A stretch of DNA of 64,000 nt from Candidatus Omnitrophota bacterium (GCA_043814315.1 JBDRKE010000024.1:4680-68679); one strand, 5' to 3'. Shown: positions 3,069-62,195, counted from the first letter of the stretch. A program made the numbers and translations. The notes: generated by a model not told the origin, from the letters alone.

Positions 3069-4447
3069 GCCCTGTTCTCTTTTTTACCCGCATGCAGAGT
3101 TTCTGACAAAGAATCGCTCACCTTGGCAATATCCCCTGCTCCGAGGGTCATCACCAGATCCCCAGGCCTAAGGATCTTCAGAATATCTTCAGCGACCTGC
3201 TCTGTAGGCCATAAAAAAACATCTTTATCCGGCGCGTGCTGTTTAATTCTTTCCAAGACGCACTGACTGTTGACTCCTGGGATAGGAAGTTCACTGGCCG
3301 GATAGATATCTGTGAGAATGACCGTATCCGCTAAATCAAAACTCTCCCCAAATTCGCTCAAGAGAAGTTTCGTCCTTGAATAGCGGTGCGGCTGAAAAAC
3401 AACGATAATCCTTTTGCGGCCAAGGTTCTTGACCGCCTCCAGAGTCGCTTTGATCTCCGTCGGATGATGCGCATAATCGTCGATCAGCAGAAAATTTGAA
3501 TCGCAGAATTTAATCTCAAGCCTCCGGCCGGCTCCTTGAAAGCCTTTAAGGGCCCCTCTAATGAACTTTAAGTCTATTTTGAGCTCCAGCCCCAAGGCGA
3601 TAACGGAAAGCGCGTTGGAGATATTATGCCAGCCACCTAAAGCCAGTTCAAATCTATCGATGAACCGGCCCTTTGAAAAACAGTCAAACTCCGACGCCAG
3701 GCCCGCCCGTTTGATATTTTTTGGATAAATATGCGCGGTTTCCCGCAGGCCGAATAACACAAATCTTCCCCCGTACTCCTTAAGCATATTTTTTAAATAA
3801 GCGTCGTCATCACAACAAAAAACGCAACCCTCTTCCTGCGTCTTGTCCAAATATGCCTTAAAAGCTTCCAGCTCCCTGTCAAACTCTTTATAATAATCCA
3901 GGTGCTCCCGGTCTATATTAGTAATAATGGAATAGTCGGGGCGGTAATACAAAAAGGAGCCGTCGGATTCATCTGCTTCTACCACAAAAAATTCACCGCT
4001 GCCCAGGCACGAATTGGTATCGATATTTTTCAAGATCCCTCCGACGGCAACACAGGGCTGTAAGCCCGCTTCCAGTAAAAGCGCGGATATCAAGGAAGCC
4101 GTTGTGGTTTTTCCGTGGCTGCCTGCAACCGTAATAACTTTTTTCCCTTCCATCAGCCGGGCCAAAACCTCTGCCCGCCTTAGAACAGGAAGCCCGAGGC
4201 TCCTGGCCTCCCGCATCTCCGGATTCTCTTCTTTAATCGCCGAGGAATAACAAATCGTTTCAGCTTTGCGTATATTCTGCGGGTGGTGCCCGATAAAAAT
4301 CCTGGCTCCCAATTTTTTAAGCTCTTGGGTGATCCTGGTTTCTTTTAAATCGGATCCGCTTACGCTCGCGCCCTTTCGCAAAAGCAGCTTGGCAATACCG
4401 CTCATCCCGATACCGCCGATACCGATTAAGTGATAGTGCTTATTCAT
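3065..4447 (-). CDS. murC: UDP-N-acetylmuramate--L-alanine ligase
   Basis: The protein starts MNKHYHLIGIGGIGMSG and has GSHGKTT. I place the start at ATG 4447, which overlaps the upstream stop as ATGA. The longer ORF-track start at 4561 is an out-of-family extension. Confidence 0.93.
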   Translation of the reverse strand: MNKHYHLIGIGGIGMSGIAKLLLRKGASVSGSDLKETRITQELKKLGARIFIGHHPQNIRKAETICYSSAIKEENPEMREARSLGLPVLRRAEVLARLMEGKKVITVAGSHGKTTTASLISALLLEAGLQPCVAVGGILKNIDTNSCLGSGEFFVVEADESDGSFLYYRPDYSIITNIDREHLDYYKEFDRELEAFKAYLDKTQEEGCVFCCDDDAYLKNMLKEYGGRFVLFGLRETAHIYPKNIKRAGLASEFDCFSKGRFIDRFELALGGWHNISNALSVIALGLELKIDLKFIRGALKGFQGAGRRLEIKFCDSNFLLIDDYAHHPTEIKATLEAVKNLGRKRIIVVFQPHRYSRTKLLLSEFGESFDLADTVILTDIYPASELPIPGVNSQCVLERIKQHAPDKDVFLWPTEQVAEDILKILRPGDLVMTLGAGDIAKVSDSLSETLHAGKKENRA

Positions 4448-7528: not shown

Positions 7529-7706
7529 GTCAAATCCAAATCACAAAGCACAAAACACAAAACAAGCCCAAAGCACAAAATCCAAAATAAAGAATCCTTT
7601 GTTTTGAATTTTGAGTTTTGGCACTTCGACTGCGCTTGAGAGCCAATGGTGAGCGGAGTCGAACCATTGGATTTATTTTGAATTTTGAATTTTGACATTT
7701 GAATTT
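7529..7706. repeat. LC-family long hairpin (copy R2) with a nested NW module
   Basis: The A/C-rich arm is caaatccaaatcacaaagcacaaaacacaaaac... The G/T-rich arm is tttgttttgaattttgagttttg ... atttattttgaattttgaattttgacatttgaattt. The right end is near-identical to the right ends of R4 and R5. Confidence 0.7.
7620..7670. repeat. NW module (ggcacttcgactgcgcttga..ccaatggt-loop-accattgg), nested in R2
   Basis: An 8-bp stem ccaatggt/accattgg. The same module recurs at 59798-59872 with a 24-nt insertion. Confidence 0.7.
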
Positions 7707-9010: not shown

Positions 9011-9051
9011 CCCTGCCTACCCTGCCTACCGGCAGGCAGGCGGCAGGCAGG
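9011..9051. repeat. GC palindrome, cctgcc family (double length)
   Basis: The sequence is ccctgcctaccctgcctaccggcaggcaggcggcaggcaggc. The A/G differences give G-U pairs only on the minus-strand RNA. Confidence 0.7.
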
Positions 9052-9052
9052 C

Positions 9053-9166
9053 AAATTCCAGATAAATTACAAATCACAAATTCCAAATTACAAACTCATG
9101 AGTTTCGGACATTGTGATTTTGGATTTGGGATTTGTTTGGGATTTGGAATTTGGAAATTGGGATTT
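9053..9166. repeat. LC-family hairpin (copy R3)
   Basis: The aaattcc..caaatcacaaattccaaattacaa arm faces ttgtgattttggatttgggatttgtttgggatttggaatttgg. The centre is a perfect palindrome, aaactcatgagttt (9092-9105). Confidence 0.65.
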
Positions 9167-9189
9167 AACTTATTATTTGTCATTTCGGC

Positions 9190-10278
9190 TTATCTTATCT
9201 TCAAAGTGACCAATGTCAGGAGTGCCAGCAGGCCGGCTATAATCCAGAACCTTACGATAACCTTATTTTCTGGCCAATTGAGGAATTGAAAATGATGGTG
9301 TAAGGGAGCGATTTTAAAGATACGTCTCTTAAAGATGCGAAAAGAACCTACCTGCAAAATGACGGATAAAGCCTCTAATACGAAAATACCCCCAACGATA
9401 ACTAAAAGTAATTCCTTCTTTATGAGCAGGGCCACCGTTCCGAGCGCCCCTCCCAAAGCCAAAGACCCGACGTCTCCCATAAATATGGAGGCCGGATGGC
9501 AGTTAAACCATAAGAAACCCAGGCCCGCTCCTAAGATGCCCGCACAAAATACGGTGAGCTCTCCCGCACCGCTTAAATAAGGAATGAGAAAGTAATTGCT
9601 GAAATTTACGTTTCCCGTTACGTAACTCAATACGCAGAACGTAAAGGCGACCATCACCGCGATGCCGACAGCCAATCCATCAAGGCCGTCGGTCAGGTTC
9701 ACCGCATTGGAAGACCCGGCGATCACCAGAATCACAAAAAGTATATACAGTCCATTTAAGTTTAAACAGGCGTCTTTCAAAAAAGGCAATTCCAGTTGAA
9801 TATTATGCTGGGGGTCGAGAAAAAGAAAGGTCCCCAATATCAGTCCCAGAACGACCTGGCTGGTTAATTTGGCGCTGGCCGTCAGTCCCTTTGATTTCTT
9901 TCTTGTCTGTTTTATATAATCGTCCATGAATCCCGTCACGCCTAACCAAAGGGTGCTTGCCAATGCGATCAACACGTACTTGTTGAGAATTTCGGCCCAC
10001 AGCAAAGTGGAAATGACAATGGCCCCTAATATCAAGATGCCTCCCATGGTAGGCGTATCCTGTTTGTTGCGGTGCAACTCATGTAATCTCGCGCTGTCGT
10101 CTTTTCTTATATGTTCACCGACCCTCAATCTCTGAAGCTGTCTTATCAATACCGGACCGAAGATCAGGCTCAAGACAAAAGCGGTGATGGTGCACATGGC
10201 CGCGCGGAAAGTTATATACCGGAAGATATTAAAAAAGGAAATGGATTCGTGCAGGGGATAAAAAAGGTAATAGAGCAT
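9190..10278 (-). CDS. mraY: phospho-N-acetylmuramoyl-pentapeptide transferase
   Basis: 362 aa polytopic protein with conserved NAVNLTDGLDGLA and HHHFQ-type motifs. Confidence 0.95.
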   Translation of the reverse strand: MLYYLFYPLHESISFFNIFRYITFRAAMCTITAFVLSLIFGPVLIRQLQRLRVGEHIRKDDSARLHELHRNKQDTPTMGGILILGAIVISTLLWAEILNKYVLIALASTLWLGVTGFMDDYIKQTRKKSKGLTASAKLTSQVVLGLILGTFLFLDPQHNIQLELPFLKDACLNLNGLYILFVILVIAGSSNAVNLTDGLDGLAVGIAVMVAFTFCVLSYVTGNVNFSNYFLIPYLSGAGELTVFCAGILGAGLGFLWFNCHPASIFMGDVGSLALGGALGTVALLIKKELLLVIVGGIFVLEALSVILQVGSFRIFKRRIFKIAPLHHHFQFLNWPENKVIVRFWIIAGLLALLTLVTLKIR

Positions 10279-16265: not shown

Positions 16266-16695
16266 CTATCAGTTTTTCGGCAATCTCTTCAAAAGATTGA
16301 CGGGTATTTCTGTAGAATTCTTCCCATTTATCCTTCGCCCAGATTTCAATTCTATTGGAGACACCCACGACAACCACCTCTCTTTTGATCTGGGCAAAAT
16401 CCTTTAAATATTGCGGCAGCAGTATCCTCCCCTGGCTATCAAAATCCATCTCAGCGGCACCGCTGAAATACAAACGGTTGAATGTGCGTGCCTGTTGCTT
16501 CGTGAAGGGGATAGACTTAAATTTGCTCTCCTGGGTCCTCCATTCTTCTTCCGGAAACATAAAGAGACAGACATCCAAACCGCGCGTAACAAAAAATTTC
16601 TCTATATAATGGCCCTTGGCAACTTCGCGAAACTTAGCGGGCAATATGAGGCGGCCTTTGCGGTCAATGGTATGAAAATACTCTCCATAAAACAT
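16258..16695 (-). CDS. mraZ: transcriptional regulator MraZ
   Basis: 145 aa starting MFYGEYFHTIDRKGRLILPAKFR, with a second DSQGRILLP repeat. Confidence 0.95.
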   Translation of the reverse strand: MFYGEYFHTIDRKGRLILPAKFREVAKGHYIEKFFVTRGLDVCLFMFPEEEWRTQESKFKSIPFTKQQARTFNRLYFSGAAEMDFDSQGRILLPQYLKDFAQIKREVVVVGVSNRIEIWAKDKWEEFYRNTRQSFEEIAEKLIDV

Positions 16696-16698
16696 AAA

Positions 16699-16929
16699 CG
16701 AGCACTTGACTTATGGTGCACTAAGTCCGCCATAAGTCAATTCTCCTTTTGTGTATTCCGCTTCTTGTACGAACTTACCCCCCCTCCACCACTTTCAATA
16801 TAGCACAGGTTATAGCGAAAGTGGTGGGGGGTGAATTCGCCCAAACAACTTACGTTCGCTTGCCGCACAAGCGGCACACCGACTGATCCGATAAAGCCGG
16901 GTGCTCGCTCCGTAAGTTGTGGTCTCATC
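16699..16929. repeat. composite palindromic element, copy A (H1 16699-16745; H2 16778-16831; H3 16833-16929 with nested 48-nt insert 16860-16907)
   Basis: It shares modules with 27386-27600, 29944-30090, 32088-32246 and 62140-62195. It occupies the mraZ 5' leader between the operator and the ATG. Confidence 0.8.
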
Positions 16930-16955
16930 CACTTTATTCCACTTATTCCCACTTT
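16929..16955 (-). promoter_or_regulatory. MraZ operator: three direct AAGTGG(G/A) boxes at 10-nt spacing
   Basis: The minus strand reads AAAGTGGGAATAAGTGGAATAAAGTGGAT immediately downstream of the -10. This matches the known MraZ repeat architecture (GTGGN plus a 5-nt spacer). Confidence 0.7.
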
Positions 16956-16963
16956 GTATCCCT

Positions 16964-16991
16964 AGTATAAGTAATTTTGCTATTTTGTCAA
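16964..16991 (-). promoter_or_regulatory. sigma70-type promoter of the dcw operon
   Basis: The minus strand reads TTGACA-16 nt-TATACT. Confidence 0.65.
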
Positions 16992-17094
16992 GTTAAAAAT
17001 TTACCTAACTTTATAAAATACAAGAAGTAGGGGATATTTAGGCTTCAAGAGGGCATATATTGTGGTATGTTGAGGTGGGAGAAATTAATGGCTT

Positions 17095-18011: not shown

Positions 18012-18086
18012 TCAAGATCGGGTCTTGTAATAGATTGAGAAATAATGAGTTGCAAGACCCGATCTTGAGGCGGTTTTGAGGCGGTT
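18012..18086. repeat. K hairpin copy 1 plus tandem tgaggcggtt x2
   Basis: Arms are tcaagatcgggtcttg (18012-18027) and caagacccgatcttga (18053-18068). The tandem 10-mer is at 18066-18086. Confidence 0.8.
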
Positions 18087-26812: not shown

Positions 26813-27385
26813 CTAAATTAGATTTTTCTTGGTAAGGATATCGAATTCGATGTTAACTTTATCGGAAGGGCCTTTAAACTTAAGCGTGGTATTTTTAAGC
26901 GTATGCGCAATGACATAGATACTAAAAGTACTGGCTTTAATATTTGCGACCGTAAAGCTGATGCCATCCACCGCAATAGAGCCTTTGGGTAAAATAGTAT
27001 TCATAAACGGCAAAGGGATGGCGATTTCAAAACAGAGGTTGTTGTTTATATAATTTTTCCTGCGGATTGTGCCCAGGCAGTCCGCGTGTCCCGTGACGAA
27101 ATGGCCACAGATCCTATCCCCCATCTTTAAACTACGCTCAAGATTGACTTCATCCGAAATCCTCAAAAACCTTAAATTCGTTACTTTCAGGGTTTCCGGG
27201 ATAATCTCAAAAGTCAAGGCTGGTTCTTTTTTTATAACCGTAAGGCAAACACCATTAACCGACAGGCTATCGCCTATCTTGATGTCCTCTTGCACTTTTT
27301 TTGTTTTTATTTCAATAAGCGTGGATTTATCGCGCGGCAAGATGCTTTTAACTTCGCCTAATTCTTCAATGATACCTGTAAACAT
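26813..27385 (-). CDS. ribE: riboflavin synthase (alpha chain)
   Basis: Starts MFTGIIEELGEV and has a two-lumazine-binding repeat architecture. ATG 27385 is preferred over GTG 27397. Confidence 0.9.
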   Translation of the reverse strand: MFTGIIEELGEVKSILPRDKSTLIEIKTKKVQEDIKIGDSLSVNGVCLTVIKKEPALTFEIIPETLKVTNLRFLRISDEVNLERSLKMGDRICGHFVTGHADCLGTIRRKNYINNNLCFEIAIPLPFMNTILPKGSIAVDGISFTVANIKASTFSIYVIAHTLKNTTLKFKGPSDKVNIEFDILTKKNLI

Positions 27386-27600
27386 AAGTGAGTGCACAAT
27401 TTATAGAACGCAATCTTTCGCTTCGTTCAGGATTATCCTAAGAAACGAAATGCCGAAGGATGAAGTGAACATATATTGTATGCTCGAACTTACCCCCCAC
27501 CACTTTCATTATAGAGTAAGCTAAATAAGAAAGTGGTGGGGGGTCAAATTCAGACATACAACTTACGTCATTTCATTCCGTAAGTTGTGTCTTCATTTAA
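27386..27600. repeat. composite palindromic element, copy C (H1-like 27386-27485; H2 27493-27543; H3 27545-27600)
   Basis: It fills the whole ribD-stop to ribE-start interval. The H2 arms are ccccccaccactttc/gaaagtggtgggggg, and the H3 stem is acaacttacg/cgtaagttgt. Confidence 0.8.
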
Positions 27601-29526: not shown

Positions 29527-29943
29527 TTATTTATCCTTCTCCAGCTTTATCTTGTCCAGTATAGCATTAACGAATTTTCCGGCTTCGGGGTCCGAATATT
29601 TCTTGGCTAGCTCTACAGCCTCATTAATAGAAACTTTGGGAGGGATATCCTCGCGAAACAGAAGCTCAAAACAACTCATTCTTAATATATTCCTATCGAC
29701 TACGGCCATACGATCCAATTGCCAATTCGTAGCGTATTGAGAGATTTTTTCGTCAATGATTTCCAGATTTTGTATCACGCCGAGGACCAGCTCTGTCGTA
29801 AAAGTTTTTAAATCTTGGACGATTGCCTCATCCGCATGCGACTCCCAAAAGCTATCCAAAGCCATATCGCCGGTATCGTGGGCGACATCCACCTGATACA
29901 GGATCTGTAACGCAAATTCTCTGGCCCGTGTGCGTTTACGCAT
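29527..29943 (-). CDS. nusB: transcription antitermination factor NusB
   Basis: 138 aa, R(A)REFALQILYQ..., and the classic ribH-nusB linkage. Confidence 0.9.
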   Translation of the reverse strand: MRKRTRAREFALQILYQVDVAHDTGDMALDSFWESHADEAIVQDLKTFTTELVLGVIQNLEIIDEKISQYATNWQLDRMAVVDRNILRMSCFELLFREDIPPKVSINEAVELAKKYSDPEAGKFVNAILDKIKLEKDK

Positions 29944-30090
29944 TTAATGAGCGCTTGACTTACGAACATGCGAGTAAGTCAATGCGCGAATTAAGTTCGG
30001 ACATAAATTTATGTTCACTTGCCGCAGAAGCGGCACACCGGCTGTTCCGATACAGCCGGGTGCTCGTTCCGTAAGTTTAGTCCTCACTTA
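29944..30090. repeat. composite palindromic element, copy D (H1 29944-29994; H3 29992-30090 with nested insert 30019-30066)
   Basis: It spans exactly from the ribH TAA (30088-30090) to the nusB ATG (29941-29943). H1 is bounded by ttaatgagcgc...gcgcgaattaa. Confidence 0.85.
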
Positions 30091-30555
30091 TTTCAACTGG
30101 CTGAAGAGATTAGCCATTTCAATCGCAGATAAAGCCGCATCTCTTCCTTTGTTGCCGTCTTTTGTCCCTGCGCGCTCAATAGCCTGCTCAATCGTATCAG
30201 CTGTAATGACGCCAAAGATGACCGGACAACCTGATTCCTGGGAGACCTTGGCAACGCCTTTTGCGACCTCTGAAGCGATGTAATCAAAATGCGGGGTTGC
30301 GCCTCGTATGACCGTCCCTAAACAGATAAGAGCATCATATGATTTTGCACGGGCTAATCTCGAAGCAACGCTGGGGATTTCAAAGGCCCCCGGCACCCAG
30401 GTGACCGCGATGTCCGCATCCAGAGCGCCGTGCCTAACCAGCGTGTCGATGCAGCCAGAGATCAGCTCTTTGGTGACAAAATCATTGAAACGCGAAGCTA
30501 CAATGCCAAATTTCTTACCTTTGGCAATCAAAGTCCCTTCAATTATTTTTGCCAT
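30088..30555 (-). CDS. ribH: 6,7-dimethyl-8-ribityllumazine synthase
   Basis: 155 aa with FGIVASRFN and VPGAFEIP motifs, preceded by the SD gaggagg. Confidence 0.95.
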
Positions 30556-32087: not shown

Positions 32088-32167
32088 TTAATGAGCACTA
32101 AACTTGCGAGCCGCCTGCCTGCCTTTAGGCATGTAGGCGAGTGCGAGTAAGTTTATGTGCGAATTAA
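32088..32167. repeat. H1 module copy E, inside the riboswitch
   Basis: ttaatgagcac...gtgcgaattaa has the same ends as H1 at 29944-29994. A cctgcc-type insert lies at the tip (32110-32138). Confidence 0.75.
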
Positions 32168-32195
32168 CCATCGGCTCTGGAATCTCGCCAGATCT

Positions 32196-32246
32196 CCCCC
32201 CACCACTTTCGCTTTTAACCTGTGCTATATCGAAAGTGGTGGGGGG
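32196..32246. repeat. H2 module copy E, inside the riboswitch (P4-hairpin position)
   Basis: ccccccaccactttcg / cgaaagtggtgggggg. The loop is the reverse complement of the loop in copy A. Confidence 0.8.
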
Positions 32247-32303
32247 TCGCGGGCTAAACCGCCGGTCAGGAATTTCACCTTGCCCCGAAGATTATTGAAC
32301 ACA

Positions 32304-32359: not shown

Positions 32360-32830
32360 ATGATACAACGCATTGTCAGCCAGATACATAAACTTCTGAT
32401 AAAAAATAAAAAAACTATGGCTGTGGCAGAATCCTGCACCGGTGGCTTGCTCTCTAGTTTTCTGACCCATTCCTCTGGCAGTTCACGATACTTTCAGTTG
32501 GGGGTAGTTGCTTACAGCAATAATATGAAGAGCACTCTTCTACAAGTACCTCCTAAGATGATTGAACAAAAAGGCGCCGTCTCCGAGCTTATCGCCAGAA
32601 GGATGGCTAAATCTGTGAGAGAATTAGCTGGGACAGACTTCGCAATAGCTATCACCGGCATTGCCGGTCCCACCGGCGGCACTCCGCAAAAACCCATAGG
32701 CACCGTCTTTATCGCCGTGAGCGCTAAGAATAAAACCATTTGCGAAGAATTCCATTTTACCGGTAACCGAACTACCATAAGAAATAAATCGGCCCTAAAA
32801 GCTTTGGAATTACTAAAGAGTTTCTTCTAA
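32360..32830 (+). CDS. CinA C-terminal-domain protein / nicotinamide-nucleotide amidohydrolase PncC-like
   Basis: TMAVAESCTGGLL..GVVAYSN motif. I prefer the start at 32360 because the longer ORF-track start (32312) overlaps the rib promoter. Confidence 0.75.
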   Translation: MIQRIVSQIHKLLIKNKKTMAVAESCTGGLLSSFLTHSSGSSRYFQLGVVAYSNNMKSTLLQVPPKMIEQKGAVSELIARRMAKSVRELAGTDFAIAITGIAGPTGGTPQKPIGTVFIAVSAKNKTICEEFHFTGNRTTIRNKSALKALELLKSFF

Positions 32831-32834
32831 AATT

Positions 32835-32922
32835 CAAGATCGGGTCTTGGAATATCTTGATAGACAACAAGTTACAAGACAAGTTACAAGACCCGATCTT
32901 GCGAGAGGGATCTTGCGAGAGG
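32835..32922. repeat. K hairpin copy 2 with tandem duplications at both borders of the right arm
   Basis: Arms are caagatcgggtcttg (32835-32849) and caagacccgatcttg (32887-32901). aagttacaagac x2 lies at 32869-32892, and gatcttgcgagagg x2 at 32895-32922. Confidence 0.8.
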
Positions 32923-34512: not shown

Positions 34513-35771
34513 ACTTCCCCCACTAAATCATATTCTAGGGTATCGGTAATCTTGACGCTGACAAAATCACCGGGAGTGAGTTCTCTATCCGACTTCACAT
34601 AGACAAGCCCGTCCACCTCGGGTGCGTCGTATTGCGTCCTGCCTAAATAGCCGTCTTTTTCTTTTTCATCGATTAAAACCTCTAGAGTCTTCCCCAGAAA
34701 TCTAGCATTGACTTCCCGAGAGACCTTCTGCTGATAAGACATGACCGAATTCAGGCGCTCACTTTTAGTTTTCCTGGGGATCTGGCCCTTAAAATGATAG
34801 GCCAAAGTTCCTTCTTCCCGAGAATAGATAAATGCCCCCAACCGTTCAAATCGGACGTCTTGCAAAAAAGAAAGCAATTCCTTAAATTCTTTTTGCGTTT
34901 CCGAAGGGAAACCTACGATAACGGACGTACGCAGGCACACCTGCGGGATGACCTTTCTGATTTTATCAATAAGTCTTAGGATATCTTTCTTTTTTATGCC
35001 TCTGTGCATCAGCTTCAGCAGGCGGTCATTGATATGCTGGATAGGTAAATCGATGTATTTACAAATCTTCGGCTCATCCTTAACCACCTTTAACAAGTCA
35101 TCGGTGAGACGGATGGGATGCAAATAAAGAAGCCTCAGCCAGCCCACGTTATCCATCCTCCTGGTGATCTCTCTTAGAACTTCAGAGAGCTTCATAGAGC
35201 CATATAAATCCATCCCGTAACCCGTGATATCCTGGCCGATACAATTGATCTCCGATACGCGATCCTTGTTAAAACCGTCTACCTGACGAAGGAGCGTTGC
35301 CTTATCCAGGCTGTTGAACTTTCCTTTTATTTTTGGAATAATGCAAAAACTACAATTGTTGATGCATCCTTCACAAATCTTTAGATACACATAATGCCTT
35401 GGGGTTATAGGAAATCTCTCCAGGCTATGATTGAGAGAAATCCTGCCCACAAAGGCATCAATCTCCGGAAGCTCCTGTTTTAGAATATACTTGTAACGCT
35501 GAGTCAGGCAACCGTAAACGATAATCTTCTTTAGCCGGCCTTCTTTCTTTAATTCCACTAAACCCAAGATGGACTGGACAGATTCCTGCCTGGCTTCTTC
35601 TATAAAAGCGCATGTATTGATAATGGCCACATCCGCGTCCTCCATATCAACGATAGAATGGCCTTTAAGGCGTAGCCTCCCGATGATATTCTCAGAGTCT
35701 ACCAGATTCCTTGGACAACCCAGGCTTAAGATCCCGATAGATTGTTTTCGCATTTTATCTTTCTTTTTCAT
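34509..35771 (-). CDS. rimO: ribosomal protein S12 methylthiotransferase
   Basis: UPF0004 N-domain, radical SAM CEGCINNCSFC, and a C-terminal TRAM domain. Confidence 0.85.
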   Translation of the reverse strand: MKKKDKMRKQSIGILSLGCPRNLVDSENIIGRLRLKGHSIVDMEDADVAIINTCAFIEEARQESVQSILGLVELKKEGRLKKIIVYGCLTQRYKYILKQELPEIDAFVGRISLNHSLERFPITPRHYVYLKICEGCINNCSFCIIPKIKGKFNSLDKATLLRQVDGFNKDRVSEINCIGQDITGYGMDLYGSMKLSEVLREITRRMDNVGWLRLLYLHPIRLTDDLLKVVKDEPKICKYIDLPIQHINDRLLKLMHRGIKKKDILRLIDKIRKVIPQVCLRTSVIVGFPSETQKEFKELLSFLQDVRFERLGAFIYSREEGTLAYHFKGQIPRKTKSERLNSVMSYQQKVSREVNARFLGKTLEVLIDEKEKDGYLGRTQYDAPEVDGLVYVKSDRELTPGDFVSVKITDTLEYDLVGEV

Positions 35772-36751
35772 CGGTTGATATTGAGGCCTTCTTTCGTGAT
35801 CAAGATATTCTTTAACACCTGGCCCCTTCTGCCTAAATTTGAAAACAGCTGGCCGTTGACCTCAAGTTCCACAGCGGAAGCATTACCTATGGAAAGTTCG
35901 ATTTTTTCTTTAGCCTGCCAGCTTTCGAATCGCCCCTTCTCCAGGGTCCTTTGAAACACGACCTTCCCGTCCACTTTAACGTAAACCCAGCAATTCTCTC
36001 TGGTCCGAAGCCCCAGCCTGATACCGGAATTCGTTTCTTTCTTAGCCGTCGACGGAGGCTGGGGGGCCGCAGGTGCAAATGAACCTCTTGCCGCGGCAAC
36101 TACGCCGGGTTCTTTAACGGCCCTGGGCGTGCGGCGTGCTGAGGTTTGAACAGGGGCGGATTTCTTTCGCGCTAAATACGCTTTGCGCTTAGAAGATATA
36201 AACTTTCCAAAATTAAAAAAAACAAAAGCCACAAACAGCAGTCCGATAACAAGTATCGCGCCCCTTTTGATTGCCTGAGCATGAACCTTGAGCCCTCTTA
36301 TTTTCTCAACGGCAATTTTTAAGTAAGAAGCTGTCTTTTGGAATAGAATTTCGAGTCTCTCCTTAAGTTTCTGCTGAGGTTTTTCCTGAGGTTTCAGCTG
36401 AGGCTTCTCTTGGGGTTTCTGCTGAGATTTTTCCTGGAGTTTCTGTCGAGGTTTTTCCTGAGGTTTCTCCTGGAGGGAAGACTTTTTTTTCTCTTTGACT
36501 GCGACAATGGGCGGTTTCGCTTGAGGCCTTGCTTCTTTATGCTCCGAAATGTAATCCTTCGGGTCAACCCCTAAGAAATTGCAATATATCTTCAAGAAAC
36601 CTTTTAAATAGACCGGACTAAGATTAGTCAGCCCATCCCCTTCGATAGCCTTCAATATATTTATATGAATCTTGGTTTTCTTATGCACCTCTTCCAGATG
36701 AATGCCCTTTTCCAGGCGGATTTTTTTAAGCCCTTCTTGCGGCTGAGTCAT
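35768..36751 (-). CDS. RodZ-like protein (HTH + TM + DUF4115-like C-terminal domain)
   Basis: N-terminal HTH (LEEVHKKTKIHINILKAIE), a low-complexity linker, a TM, and a C-terminal beta domain (CWVYVKVDGKVVF...). Confidence 0.55.
   Translation of the reverse strand: MTQPQEGLKKIRLEKGIHLEEVHKKTKIHINILKAIEGDGLTNLSPVYLKGFLKIYCNFLGVDPKDYISEHKEARPQAKPPIVAVKEKKKSSLQEKPQEKPRQKLQEKSQQKPQEKPQLKPQEKPQQKLKERLEILFQKTASYLKIAVEKIRGLKVHAQAIKRGAILVIGLLFVAFVFFNFGKFISSKRKAYLARKKSAPVQTSARRTPRAVKEPGVVAAARGSFAPAAPQPPSTAKKETNSGIRLGLRTRENCWVYVKVDGKVVFQRTLEKGRFESWQAKEKIELSIGNASAVELEVNGQLFSNLGRRGQVLKNILITKEGLNINR
36368..36475. repeat. nine tandem 12-nt units inside the rodZ-like gene
   Basis: Units tttctgctgagg/tttttcctgagg... 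encode (P/L/S)Q(E/Q)K tetrapeptides on the minus strand. Confidence 0.85.
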
Positions 36752-45495: not shown

Positions 45496-45544
45496 GGTTT
45501 ATTATATTTAGCGAGCCCCCTGTCCTATAAATTTTCAAACTTTC

Positions 45545-45617
45545 TCAAGATCGGGTCTTGTAACTCATTATTTACCAAACTATTTCAAGACCCGATCTTA
45601 AATTTCTTAAATTTCTG
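45545..45617. repeat. K hairpin copy 3 plus tandem aaatttct(t/g) x2
   Basis: Arms are tcaagatcgggtcttg (45545-45560) and caagacccgatctta (45586-45600). The loop is about 80% identical to the reverse complement of the K1 loop. Confidence 0.8.
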
Positions 45618-53335: not shown

Positions 53336-53492
53336 AAATGACAAAGCACAAGGTTATCAATAAATTCAAATACCAAAGCACAAAGCACAAATATCAAAAC
53401 AGAGAATTTCTTGTTTTGAATTTTGGGTTTTGCCTGCCTGCCGGCAAGGCAGGGATTTATTTTGAATTTTGAATTTTGTCATTTGTGCTTTA
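53336..53492. repeat. LC-family hairpin (copy R4) with a nested cctgcc palindrome
   Basis: The left arm aaattcaaataccaaagcacaaa is identical to the R5 left arm. The right end atttattttgaattttgaattttgtcatttg is shared with R2. Confidence 0.7.
53432..53454. repeat. GC palindrome, cctgcc family
   Basis: gcctgcctgccggcaaggcaggg lies at the apex region of R4. Confidence 0.7.
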
Positions 53493-53494
53493 AG

Positions 53495-54688
53495 TTAAAG
53501 GCCTAAACGCTGCGCCGCAACATAAGTGTCTTTATCGCCTCTTCCCGAAAGGCAGACAATAATGATAGATTTCTTATTTATTTTGCCTTTTAACTTTTTC
53601 AAATAAAAAATAGCATGCGCCGGCTCAAGGGCAGGGATAATCCCTTCTGTTTCCGAGAGCAGCTTAAAACCTTCCAACGCTTCTTCGTCCTTTACGGCGA
53701 CGTACCGGGCTCTGCCTATTTTCTTATAGTAGGCGTGTTCCGGACCAACGCCTGGATAATCCAGGCCCGGGGCTATAGAGTGCGCATTTTTGATTTGGCC
53801 GAATCTATCCTCTAAAAGGTCGGACTTTGAACCGTGCAAAACCCCCGGCTTTCCCGCAACTAAACTTGCCGAATGCCTACCGGAATGAAGCCCTGCTCCT
53901 GCAGCCTCAACCCCGATCATCCTCACCTTTCTATCATTAAAGAACGGATGGAACAACCCCATGGCATTACTGCCTCCTCCCACGCAAGCCACCAGATAAT
54001 CAGGAAGCCGGTTTTCTTTCTTTAAAATTGCGCCTCTGGCTTCCTTGCCAATCACCGACTGAAAATCGCGCACCATCTCCGGGTAAGGATGGGGCCCTGC
54101 CACAGAACCTATAATATAATGCGTGTGACGCACATGCGTAACCCAATCCCTTAAGGCTTCAGTCATGGCATCCTTGAGTGTCTTTGTTCCGTTTTTAACC
54201 GGGATGACGCGGCTGCCTAATAACTTCATGCGATAAACGTTAAGGCTTTGCCTTTTTATATCTTCCTCACCCATATAAATATCGCACGTTAAACCAAACA
54301 TCGCGGCCACCGCTGCCGTAGCGACGCCGTGCTGGCCCGCTCCGGTCTCTGCGATGATGCGAGACTTTTTCATCCGAAGCGCCAGCAAAACCTGACCCAG
54401 GGTATTGTTGATTTTATGCGCGCCTGTATGCAGCAGGTCTTCCCTTTTCAGATAGACCCTCACCCCGCCTAAGAAACAACTCAAATTCTTCGCAAAATAC
54501 AAAGACGTGGGCCGGCCCGCATACTCTTTAAGATAATAATCCAGCTGACGGTTAAATTTTCTATCCCGCCTGGCTTTTCTGTATTCCTGCTCCAGTTCGT
54601 CAAGGGCATAAATGAGAGTCTCCGGTACAAATCGCCCCCCGAACTCCCCAAAATGCCCAGTCTTATCCGGTAACCTCTTTTTCATCAT
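53495..54688 (-). CDS. trpB: tryptophan synthase beta chain
   Basis: [13 protein letters not shown] and HTGAHKINN motifs. I place the start at ATG 54688 with the SD gaggag; the ORF-track GTG at 54772 is an extension. Confidence 0.95.
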
Positions 54689-54834
54689 AAATAACTCCTC
54701 TATTCTTAGCGGCCTGCCTAGTCTGTGCTTTCGCGGGGACGTTCGTTTTGCCCCTGCGAGGCAAAACTTCACTCGTCTCGGCTGCGTCGTCTTTTCCCAT
54801 GCTCAAAGTAAAGATAGGGAAAGGATGCCCGCTC

Positions 54835-54854
54835 CCTGCCTGCCGGCAGGCAGG
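54835..54854. repeat. GC palindrome, cctgcc family (perfect 20-mer)
   Basis: cctgcctgccggcaggcagg. Confidence 0.75.
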
Positions 54855-58265: not shown

Positions 58266-58282
58266 ATGGACTTACCCTTTTT

Positions 58283-58408
58283 AAAATTCAAATACCAAAG
58301 CACAAAATCCAAAATAAACTCAAAGCACAAAATCTAAAACTAAAAAGGTTTGTTTAGAATTTTTGATTTTGGATTTGTTTTGTGCTTTGGATTTTGTCAT
58401 TTGAATTT
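58283..58408. repeat. LC-family hairpin (copy R5) in the murA-trpG spacer
   Basis: The arm aaattcaaataccaaagcacaaaatccaaaataaa... faces ...ggatttgttttgtgctttggattttgtcatttgaattt. There is an internal ~26-nt direct duplication. Confidence 0.7.
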
Positions 58409-58411
58409 ACA

Positions 58412-59702: not shown

Positions 59703-59917
59703 GAAATTCCAAATCACAAATCCCAAATCGCAAACAAATCCCAATACCGAAATCCCAATGTCCGAAATAAAAGATTTATTTCGGAATTTTGCAAATTGGC
59801 ACTTCGACTACGCTTGAACGCCAATGGTGAGCGGAGTCCTGAGCCTGTCGAAGGGCGAAGCCGAACCATTGGAATTTATAATTTGTTTGTAATTTGTGTA
59901 TTGGGATTTGGGATTTT
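59703..59917. repeat. LC-family hairpin (copy R6) with a nested NW module and a small inner hairpin
   Basis: The arm gaaattccaaatcacaaatcccaaatcgcaaacaaatccc... faces aatttataatttgtttgtaatttgtgtattgggatttgggattttt. The inner hairpin is tccgaaataaa/tttatttcgga (59761-59785). Confidence 0.7.
59798..59872. repeat. NW module copy 2 (with a 24-nt insertion at 59839-59862)
   Basis: ggcacttcgactacgcttgaacgccaatggtgagcggagtc[ctgagcctgtcgaagggcgaagcc]gaaccattgg, compared with 7620-7670. Confidence 0.75.
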
Positions 59918-62139: not shown

Positions 62140-62195
62140 TAAGTTCGGACATAAATTTACGTTCACTTTCGTTCCGTAAATTTAGTCCTCACTTA
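62140..62195. repeat. H3 module, minimal copy F, starting at the rho stop codon
   Basis: taagttcggacataaatttacg-ttcactttcgttc-cgtaaatttagtcctcactta. It has the same ends as H3 in copy D but lacks the 48-nt nested insert. Confidence 0.8.

Follow-up and report, generated by a model that had tools for sequence, protein, structure and literature searches.

The subject of this analysis is the intercistronic gap between ribH and nusB in a 64,000-nucleotide (nt) stretch of DNA from a Candidatus Omnitrophota bacterium (GCA_043814315.1 JBDRKE010000024.1:4680-68679; hereafter, the window). The gap measures exactly 144 nt (29944-30087), is palindromic throughout and is occupied by two inverted copies of a hairpin repeat, here called unit A and unit B. 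The bacteria of this phylum have not been cultured, are in many cases ultra-small and have compact genomes. All genes around the gap lie on the minus strand, and the identities of the neighbours ribBA, PHP phosphatase, ribD, ribE, mraZ, ribF and rho are backed by NCBIfam equivalog models. The start of nusB is secure because nearly all of the 120 best homologues are likewise 138 amino acids long. Homologues of NusB assign the window to Candidatus Omnitrophota, and look-ups for identical NusB or RibH proteins returned no entry. The features of the junction are listed below, each unit being read from its L end to its R end; R1 is a covariance model built from an alignment of 55 canonical units (55-57 nt), of which 54 come from other genomes.

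30088-30555, minus strand: ribH, with its TAA stop at 30090-30088; TIGR00114, 175.6 bits, NCBIfam equivalog cut-off reached
30088..30090, minus strand: ribH stop codon TAA, which doubles as the terminal TAA of unit A
29992..30090, minus strand: unit A ("H3"), long form, L to R on the sense strand; R1 positions 1-57, 53.6 bits, E 1e-10
30019..30063, minus strand: 45-nt two-hairpin insert in the apical loop of unit A; 45 nt against 2 in the model in the R1 alignment
29944..29994, plus strand: unit B ("H1"), short form, L to R on the plus strand and inverted relative to unit A; R1 end to end, 51.1 bits, E 4.5e-10
29941..29943, minus strand: nusB start codon ATG, immediately after the terminal TTAA of unit B and preceded by an in-frame TAA (29946-29944)
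29527-29943, minus strand: nusB, with its ATG at 29943-29941; TIGR01951, 145.6 bits, NCBIfam equivalog cut-off reached

Because R1 matches unit A on the minus strand and unit B on the plus strand end to end, the gap is a tail-to-tail dimer of one family of 57-nt hairpin repeats, with the outer L ends facing the two coding sequences and the inner R ends joined at ccgaacTTAAttcgcg. The outer end of unit A, TAAGTGAGG, starts with the ribH stop codon (30090-30088), and its inner end is ...GTCCGAACTTA; the outer end of unit B, TTAATGAGCGC, adjoins the nusB ATG at 29943, and its inner end, GCGCGAATTAA, shares the TAA at 29992-29994 with unit A. Read in one direction, H1 (plus strand) and H3 (minus strand) follow the same plan, in which the outer T(T)AA-(R)TGAG leads into a variable stem and then a semi-conserved one, AAYTTAYGG, with a conserved loop and an inner CGAA-(Y)TTAA after it, and H3 differs solely by its 45-nt apical insert (GCACCCGGCTG-tatcggaa-CAGCCGGTGT / GCCGC-ttct-GCGGC). 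The first-pass annotation had quoted the sequences of H1 (29944-29994) and H3 (29992-30090) correctly and had rightly described the gap as wholly palindromic from stop to start (29944-30087), but its division into two different modules is not borne out, as one covariance model fits both over all 57 positions on opposite strands. The complementary strand of unit B scores only 18.8 bits with R1. The insert of unit A recurs, 91% identical, nested in another unit of the window (16832-16931), and related copies are found in the loci L001, L061/62 and L003 (L-numbered loci are DNA stretches of relatives).

The sense strand of the gap region folds with -59.4 kcal/mol (z -4.7) and the antisense strand with -64.1 kcal/mol (z -6.3); in each case, 0 of 200 dinucleotide shuffles folded as well. 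In the sense minimum free energy structure, the ribH UAA is base-paired at the foot of H3, the first hairpin, and the nusB AUG comes after the base of the second hairpin. The pairing of the stop codon in the basal stem of H3 had been proposed earlier and is found in this structure, and the abutment of the H1 end on the nusB ATG without a Shine-Dalgarno (SD) sequence is likewise confirmed, none of GGAG, GAGG or AGGA being present within 25 nt upstream of that ATG. A scan for promoters and terminators found no promoter-like or terminator-like site inside 29944-30090, and neither hairpin has a T-run behind it. Two further candidates were rejected at this start. A small upstream open reading frame (ORF) ending at the TAA before the nusB ATG has no start in its frame, and a split SD brought close by a hairpin, as in T4 gene 38, is ruled out by the lack of any SD-like sequence upstream of the nusB and mraZ composites.

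Canonical units of the family are 55-57 nt long and consist of T(T)AA-(R)TGAG, 4-6 variable covarying base pairs, AAYTTAYGG-AACGnnAGTGAAC-RTAARTT, variable base pairs and CGAA-(Y)TTAA. Unit sizes range from 51 to 108 nt and those of composites from 144 to 235 nt; there is no coding capacity, and all three frames are closed by stop codons at the L end, TAAgTGAggacTAA. In the 55-unit alignment, where terminal inverted repeats are present, 98.5% of the 1153 cells form standard pairs over 21 pairs. Both-side changes are seen in 14 of these pairs (212 cells), the observed score was reached by 0 of 500 shuffles, and shifting the partner columns lowers pairing to 19-37%. Fixed in the alignment are the T.A pairs at the ends, a tandem G.A/A.G mismatch in which TGAG faces CGAA, and the loop GGAACGnnAGTGAAC, with T1, A3, G6 and A7 as invariant columns at the unit foot T(T)AA-(R)TGAG. 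Units are commonly assembled into mosaics of a hairpin A, a variable central hairpin and an inverted hairpin B, TGAG ends outward, and about 75% of units have TCCC, CCCC, TCCT or ACCC next to the R end, where the second, variable hairpin begins. The usual full element reads stop-[A unit]-[central hairpin]-[B unit, inverted]-(GGAGG)-ATG; the ribH-nusB copy is without the central hairpin. Eleven inverted pairs with 17-64-nt spacers were counted in the window and the loci. Tandem arrays of up to four [unit + central hairpin] copies, with a period of about 109 nt, were also observed (L191 ~3300-3830; L089/L095; L150 2385-2640), which points to amplification also by tandem duplication, as in BIME-2 arrays. 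As regards detection, the default R1 search finds insert-bearing copies and the unfiltered search misses them. An ungapped arm-matching scan misses most units (1-2-nt bulge in one arm), and a gapped end-pair comparison was used instead, giving 40 raw matches in the first 756 kb compared with 0, 0 and 0 in three shuffles.

The same junction was then compared among relatives, using 83 orthologous loci in which the distance from the ribH stop to the nusB ATG was taken for 80 junctions including that of the window. The spacer is -1 to 25 nt in 57 of the 80 (TAATG, TAAaATG, TAAtatATG), mostly without SD, and 66-254 nt in the other 23, where it is always palindromic with modules that vary by lineage. 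L001, the 99%-identical strain, shares the window's dimer apart from three substitutions; L002 and L003, 86% relatives, carry a different central-type hairpin and another unit subfamily on the ATG side; and further module combinations occur in L015, L037, L041, L061/62, L070 and L075/78. Some of the short spacers resemble deletion remnants, for example, TAGgTTAATTCGCACaacaaATTAAaagATG in L004 and L007. Comparison of the 57 empty with the 23 differently filled junctions shows that the ancestral ribH-nusB junction was spacer-less, with stop and start adjacent or overlapping, and has been hit repeatedly.

In the window, the sense strand reads gaaa-TA-[AGTGAGG...CCGAACT]-TA-[ATTCGCGC...GCGCTCAT]-TA-AATG, and taking out the units with one TA each leaves gaaaTAAATG, a stop followed at once by a start and comparable to the 0-7-nt empty junctions of relatives. 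Elsewhere in the operon, L003 has a ribD-ribE spacer of 7 nt (gtaaagTAAatccaaaATG) compared with 195 nt in the window, and a ribBA-ribH spacer of 15 nt (gatTAAgagaggaggagcgacATG) compared with 248 nt. The ribBA-ribH junction provides an empty and a filled form, gatTAAgagagg in L003 vs gatTAA[GTGAGG...unit-C-unit...GCTCAT]TAAaggaggagg in L002 (right flank TAAaggagg). In the flavin mononucleotide (FMN) riboswitch upstream of ribBA, a unit sits in the loop of a peripheral hairpin as GATGGT-TA-[unit]-TA-AAGTCCAGATGAG (TA then AAGTCC), with TA on both sides. TA bounds nearly every unit, and the flanking of module ends by TA or TTAA, pointed out in the first-pass annotation, is borne out in the unit survey and the alignment. 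Three empty/filled comparisons fit TA-[unit]-TA, and all empty/filled cases would fit insertion at TA. Since units start with A after TA, the TAA stop is rebuilt upstream; where a TA 4 nt further upstream is used, the end TA-A[AG]TGA rebuilds Lys-stop, as seen at ribD (window and L077) and at nusB (L002).

Position statistics were drawn from 115 distinct units obtained by the gapped scan of 1.6 Mb (the window and the relatives' loci). The L end lies at a gene boundary, that is, a stop or start codon, in 90 units and the R end in 12; L ends fall at the stop of an incoming ORF in 46 units, mostly with TAA at offset 0 or TGA at +4, and at the start of an outgoing ORF in 55. The preference for stop/start junctions, the lack of which had been named beforehand as a refuting test, is strong among these units. 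Start offsets are bimodal, being either -1 to +3 without SD (23 cases) or 8-16 with GGAGG right after the terminal TWA, a pattern to be expected from entry of the element at the TA of stop codons in compact junctions, in which the stop directly precedes an ATG or an SD. An ordinary GGAGG stands just outside the element in about half of the start-adjacent copies, and SD-less flush copies are found also at the first genes of operons (mraZ in the window; ribBA in L104, L037 and L203), where termination-reinitiation cannot operate. Within the window, an SD-like motif (GGAG, GAGG or AGGA, 4-22 nt from the naive start) was found for 14 of 55 long ORFs (about 25%), and SD-independent initiation seems to be common in this Omnitrophota genome. 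The missing SD before nusB is thus ordinary and not created by the element, because 14 of 55 ORFs have an SD and most empty junctions have none. The contrast once drawn with other genes that have GGAGG holds for a minority of ORFs and was overstated, and a special role cannot be read from the SD-less start.

Altogether, the gap most probably represents two inverted copies of a non-autonomous Omnitrophota hairpin repeat, resembling REP, BIME and miniature transposable elements with inverted repeats (MITEs), at the TA of the ribH stop. On this reading, its exact stop-to-start span is a by-product, not a design feature, because insertion took place at the TA of the stop codon where ribH and nusB had hardly any spacer between them. 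In this lineage the units sit at the TA of the ribH TAA, with the downstream side retaining the original stop/start context, and they would be spread by a transposase-type reaction at TA to which tandem duplication and nesting into apical loops may also contribute. Insertion may be tolerated as each unit folds on itself, and the last 5 bp of the unit, all A-T beside a 2-nt mismatch, could allow the region before the AUG to breathe open; nusB, as most genes here, would be translated without SD. MITE-like, TA-targeting insertion at stop codons had been one of the two suggestions of the first-pass annotation, and it is supported by the 57 of 80 empty junctions, the L003/L002 pair, the TA-unit-TA arrangement in the riboswitch and the boundary position of 90 of 115 units. 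The other, that precise placement reflects a role in translational coupling or mRNA processing, is not needed, since insertion into a 0-7-nt spacer explains the placement.

Several observations weigh against insertion of passive TA-targeting repeats. TA is self-complementary, and the terminal 5 nt pair and covary within the stem, so that a target-site duplication and repeat ends are indistinguishable. At the orthologous ribD-ribE junctions of the window and L077 (about 70% protein identity), the unit arms are 97-98% identical, compared with 40-43% identity at the third codon positions of ribD and ribE on either side; such same-site identity beside saturated synonymous sites is not expected of passively decaying junk. 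The central hairpin of this composite, with compensating changes, and its apical insert have diverged. There is also a polarity relative to transcription, TAAG-type ends predominating at stops (17:5) and TTAA-type ends at starts (31:7). In 86 of 88 distinct units, the L to R strand gives the more stable fold of the two strands (means -22.6 vs -18.3 kcal/mol), because the mismatch and loop features are asymmetric, and R1 scores the strands unequally (e.g. 76.6 vs 19.3 bits). The invariant TGAG/CGAA mismatch and loop, together with this strand-biased folding, hint that the units have a form as single-stranded DNA or RNA on which constraints of its own act. As for a mobilizing enzyme, a tblastn search of the window and 203 loci (1.6 Mb of genome fragments) with E. 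coli RayT as the query gave no hit (best E 0.22); this evidence is weak, since such loci would seldom include a single-copy gene. No recurring transposase-like family was present among the 871 ORFs adjoining units in 120 loci, the most recurrent genes being those of the rib-nusB group, no long element bounded by unit ends occurred in the 1.6 Mb, and neither the RayT search nor the clustering of ORFs beside units yielded an IS630-like or other partner. These observations would partly suit a REP/REPIN-type system, in which a single-copy, vertically inherited HUH/Y1 RAYT-like transposase moves single-stranded DNA hairpins without target duplication, instead of a TA-duplicating DDE MITE; this is possible, if on the doubtful side. 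In its favour, one strand is the more stable and the higher scoring, stems covary with short foot and loop motifs kept invariant, inverted pairs with a spacer and tandem arrays are formed like those of REPINs and BIMEs, and persistence is phylum-wide with same-site conservation. REPIN-RAYT systems have been described as vertically inherited and as lasting millions of years (PMC3116915, PMC8049555). Against it, no RAYT-like ORF was found in the 1.6 Mb (weak evidence, as only loci were covered), the units, at 55-57 nt and 21 bp, exceed typical REPs in length, and TA bounds nearly every unit, as in IS630/mariner-type insertion. Moreover, unit ends are TWA-n-TGAG, without the GTAG motif that forms the head of classical REPs.

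Conservation and placement could also be read at the RNA level. If the units were a host-selected intercistronic RNA module, serving stop-AUG reinitiation, cutting at the hairpin base or protection against 3' exonucleases, their placement would be functional whatever its origin. This is unlikely, even though L ends are flush with the AUG (-1 to +3) or just before GGAGG (8-16), flush copies occur at first genes where coupling is impossible, same-site copies are 97-98% conserved vs saturated synonymous sites, composites have a polarity relative to transcription, and the ribH UAA is base-paired, the AUG coming after the hairpin base. The same geometry is predicted by insertion at the stop TA of 0-7-nt junctions, and no element is needed at 57 of the 80 orthologous junctions. 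G.U pairs make up 5 of the 1153 cells in the alignment and H3 folds better as antisense than as the mRNA strand, which argues for DNA-level complementarity and not for RNA-level selection. Units stand in both orientations in transcripts (40 L to R, 50 R to L), copies are found away from cistron junctions, for example, in the riboswitch loop, and SD-less starts are common without any element. Improbable too, and slightly more so, is a domesticated mRNA punctuation in which a conserved factor would read the tandem G.A mismatch and the GGAACGnnAGTGAAC loop, with a cut or ribosome handover at the hairpin base. A flush AUG (-1 to +3) would then be usable without SD and, at mraZ and ribBA, without an upstream cistron, and the 97-98% same-site conservation, the A-to-B polarity and the precise abutment to AUG or GGAGG would be accounted for. 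An intrinsic terminator or attenuator between ribH and nusB, or a nusB promoter, is very improbable: the stable GC-containing hairpins do follow straight after the stop codon, but there is no T-run behind them and no terminator- or promoter-like site in the gap, and the same units lie inside a riboswitch aptamer loop and before SDs within operons. Two other kinds of element were rejected. Integron attC sites have RYYYAAC...GTTRRRY core sites around an imperfect palindrome and lie downstream of promoterless cassette ORFs; here, the ends are TWAnTGAG / CGAAnTWA, there are no core sites, and the flanking genes are housekeeping genes (ribH, nusB, rho, mraZ). A CRISPR array is ruled out by anatomy.

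The distribution of the TA-bounded repeat was examined with a loop-plus-stem pattern over one genome per species, for 185,579 species. At least 120 stretches match, and all of the matches listed are Omnitrophota metagenome-assembled genomes (MAGs) or single-amplified genomes, or MAGs labelled 'uncultured Planctomycetia/Planctomycetales'; no match of the unit was found in 2.9 million viral contigs. With R1, 41 units were detected in 692 kb of orthologous loci and 7 in the 64-kb window. No Rfam family matches the element: the sole gathering-score match of the window is a tRNA, and a search of 29850-30200 at E up to 10 returned a chance match to a long non-coding RNA at 12 bits and nothing else. 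Full-text literature searches found no description of Omnitrophota repeat content. As far as the searched literature and Rfam show, the family is new, and the kind of element is already known. The riboflavin-nusB operon is a hot spot for these repeats across the phylum. In the 120 unit-bearing loci from different genomes (L084-L203), the commonest neighbours are ribBA (7 loci) and ribD, ribE, ribH, nusB and PHP phosphatase (5 each).

Besides units A and B, the R1 search of the window, which gave 7 full-length units in all, found five copies; they are listed here together with a central hairpin from the repeat search and an eighth, degenerate unit read from the sequence at 16695-16778.

62140..62195, minus strand: canonical 56-nt unit at the rho stop; its L-end TAA is the rho stop codon (62195-62193); R1 76.6 bits, E 1.5e-16
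32088..32167, plus strand: unit with a nested GCCTGCCTGCC palindrome, in the FMN riboswitch hairpin loop upstream of ribBA; R1 42.3 bits and FMN alignment
27545..27599, minus strand: unit at the ribD stop, first part of the A-C-B composite filling the ribD-ribE gap; R1 59.6 bits
27493..27543, no strand assigned: central 'C' hairpin (CCCCCCACCACTTTC...GAAAGTGGTGGGGGG) of the ribD-ribE composite, from the repeat search; further copies at ~16779-16832 and 32196-32247
27385..27492, plus strand: unit with a 53-nt apical insert at ribE; its L end, TAAGTGAGTGCAC, shares one base with the ribE ATG (TTATG); R1 49.2 bits
16832..16931, minus strand: long-form unit with a 45-nt insert, upstream end of the A-C-B composite in the mraZ 5' leader; R1 58.4 bits
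16695..16778, plus strand: degenerate unit at mraZ, read from the sequence and not reported by R1; its L end, TAAACGAGCAC, shares one base with the mraZ ATG (TTATG)

The mosaic form stop-[A unit]-[central hairpin]-[B unit inverted] is thus seen in the window at ribD-ribE and in the mraZ leader. At ribD, the L end TAAATGA of the unit gives the gene its last Lys codon and its TGA stop (27595-27593), and in the repeat search the region 16832-16931 is 85% identical to 30006-30086. The end-to-start parallels that had been drawn with mraZ (...gtgctcgtTTATG at 16695) and ribE (...gtgcactcacTTATG at 27385) are real, as is the embedding of the rho TAA (62195-62193) as the first triplet of a unit of the same family. 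Upstream of the mraZ composite (~16930-16995, minus strand), there is a near-consensus promoter (TTGACA, 16 nt, TATACT) and, after it, a set of three GTGG[GA]A boxes with a spacing of 10 nt that look like the operator repeats of MraZ; the third box overlaps the unit L end at 16931. The FMN riboswitch upstream of ribBA (32146-32296, minus strand) scores 65.1 bits, just short of the Rfam gathering score of 66.2, because its peripheral hairpin loops have taken up two palindromic modules, namely the C hairpin (32196-32247) and the unit at 32088-32167; in L003, the riboswitch scores 77.1 bits, and the insert in that loop is another one, of 48 nt. A small 'I module' made of two hairpins (GCACCCGRCY-ktatmggaw-ARGYCGGTG + GCCGC-nnnn-GCGGC), with flanks that are without TA, was observed at 30019-30063 and 16861-16904 in the window and in L003 (844-885), L061 (6651-6680) and L041 (~170-215); its contexts are unit apical loops, a riboswitch loop, and alone between a stop codon and an SD.

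Other repeats are also found in the window. A second family consists of AT-rich long hairpins with arms AAATCCAAATCACAAAGCACAAAA... and ...TTTTGAATTTTGAGTTTTGG, which fill gaps and occupy whole intergenic spaces (380-444, 7531-7706, 9060-9170, 53337-53496, 58284-58410, 59704-59767); at 58266-58411, a single 146-nt AT-rich hairpin lies between two genes, and a similar low-complexity hairpin fills the ribH-nusB gap of L006. The third family, CAAGATCGGGTCTTGTAA...TTGCAAGACCCGATCTTG, forms intergenic palindromic pairs that are 82-92% complementary between copies (18014-18076, 32830-32910, 45537-45605), and a repeat GGCACTTCGACTRCGCTTGA..CCAATGGTGAGCGGAGTC is present in two copies (7606-7672 and 59784-59875) that are 87% identical. 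The short palindrome CCTGCCTGCCGGCAGGCAGG occurs at 9021-9049, 32105-32131, 53440-53460 and 54826-54854 and is also nested in apical loops of units (32105-32131 in the window; 9208-9282 and 10411-10465 in L002). A 12-nt tandem repeat (TTTCTGCTGAGG-like) in at least 8 copies (36346-36477) lies inside the ORF 35768-36751, where it probably encodes a low-complexity protein linker, because the orthologous ORF in L002 carries RodZ-type domains.

The Omnitrophota repeat is of practical concern as a source of annotation errors, since it supplies stop codons and a last Lys codon and its nested insertions push a real FMN riboswitch below the Rfam threshold. It can serve as a marker for recognizing and binning Omnitrophota DNA, and it amounts to an experiment of nature on the amount of structure that translationally coupled junctions tolerate. 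Should its conservation and polarity reflect a host function, the family would represent an intercistronic signal of a new kind; otherwise, it is another REP/MITE-like family.

Among known systems, REP/BIME of E. coli and REPIN of Pseudomonas are similar in being short multicopy extragenic imperfect palindromes located in operons between a stop and the next gene, in forming mosaics, in which two types of unit alternate in orientation and are joined by linker motifs, and at times tandem arrays, in having a fixed internal mismatch that orients the unit, and in persisting for long within a lineage (PMC3116915, PMC3337134). The Omnitrophota units differ from them in being unrelated in sequence, longer (55-57 nt, 21 bp) and TA-bounded, with ends TWA-n-TGAG / CGAA-n-TWA instead of a GTAG head, no RAYT in the loci, and Omnitrophota as the host phylum. 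The Correia elements of Neisseria (CREE/NEMIS) are also small non-coding elements with terminal inverted repeats (TIRs) at TA, often adjoining coding sequences, co-transcribed with their neighbours as long mRNA hairpins and polymorphic in presence or absence among relatives (PMC2649163, PMC2229807). However, CREE are 100-155 bp long, with 26-bp TIRs, an IHF site and promoter-generating ends (PMC2649163, PMC2229807), whereas the Omnitrophota elements are built from a hairpin of 57 nt, two of which usually enclose a central hairpin that varies, and the gap has no promoter-like sites. In Streptococcus pneumoniae, RUP elements, mobilized by IS630-Spn1, share the TA target, TIRs and stop codons in all frames, and BOX elements are likewise modular (boxA-boxB(n)-boxC) and give stable RNA hairpins in transcripts (PMC2229807, PMC3049150). 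A matching IS630 transposase is known for RUP, and none was found for the Omnitrophota units in the loci searched. The sequences of RUP and BOX are unrelated to those described here, and, unlike them, the Omnitrophota units are conserved phylum-wide, with a same-site conservation far above neutral.

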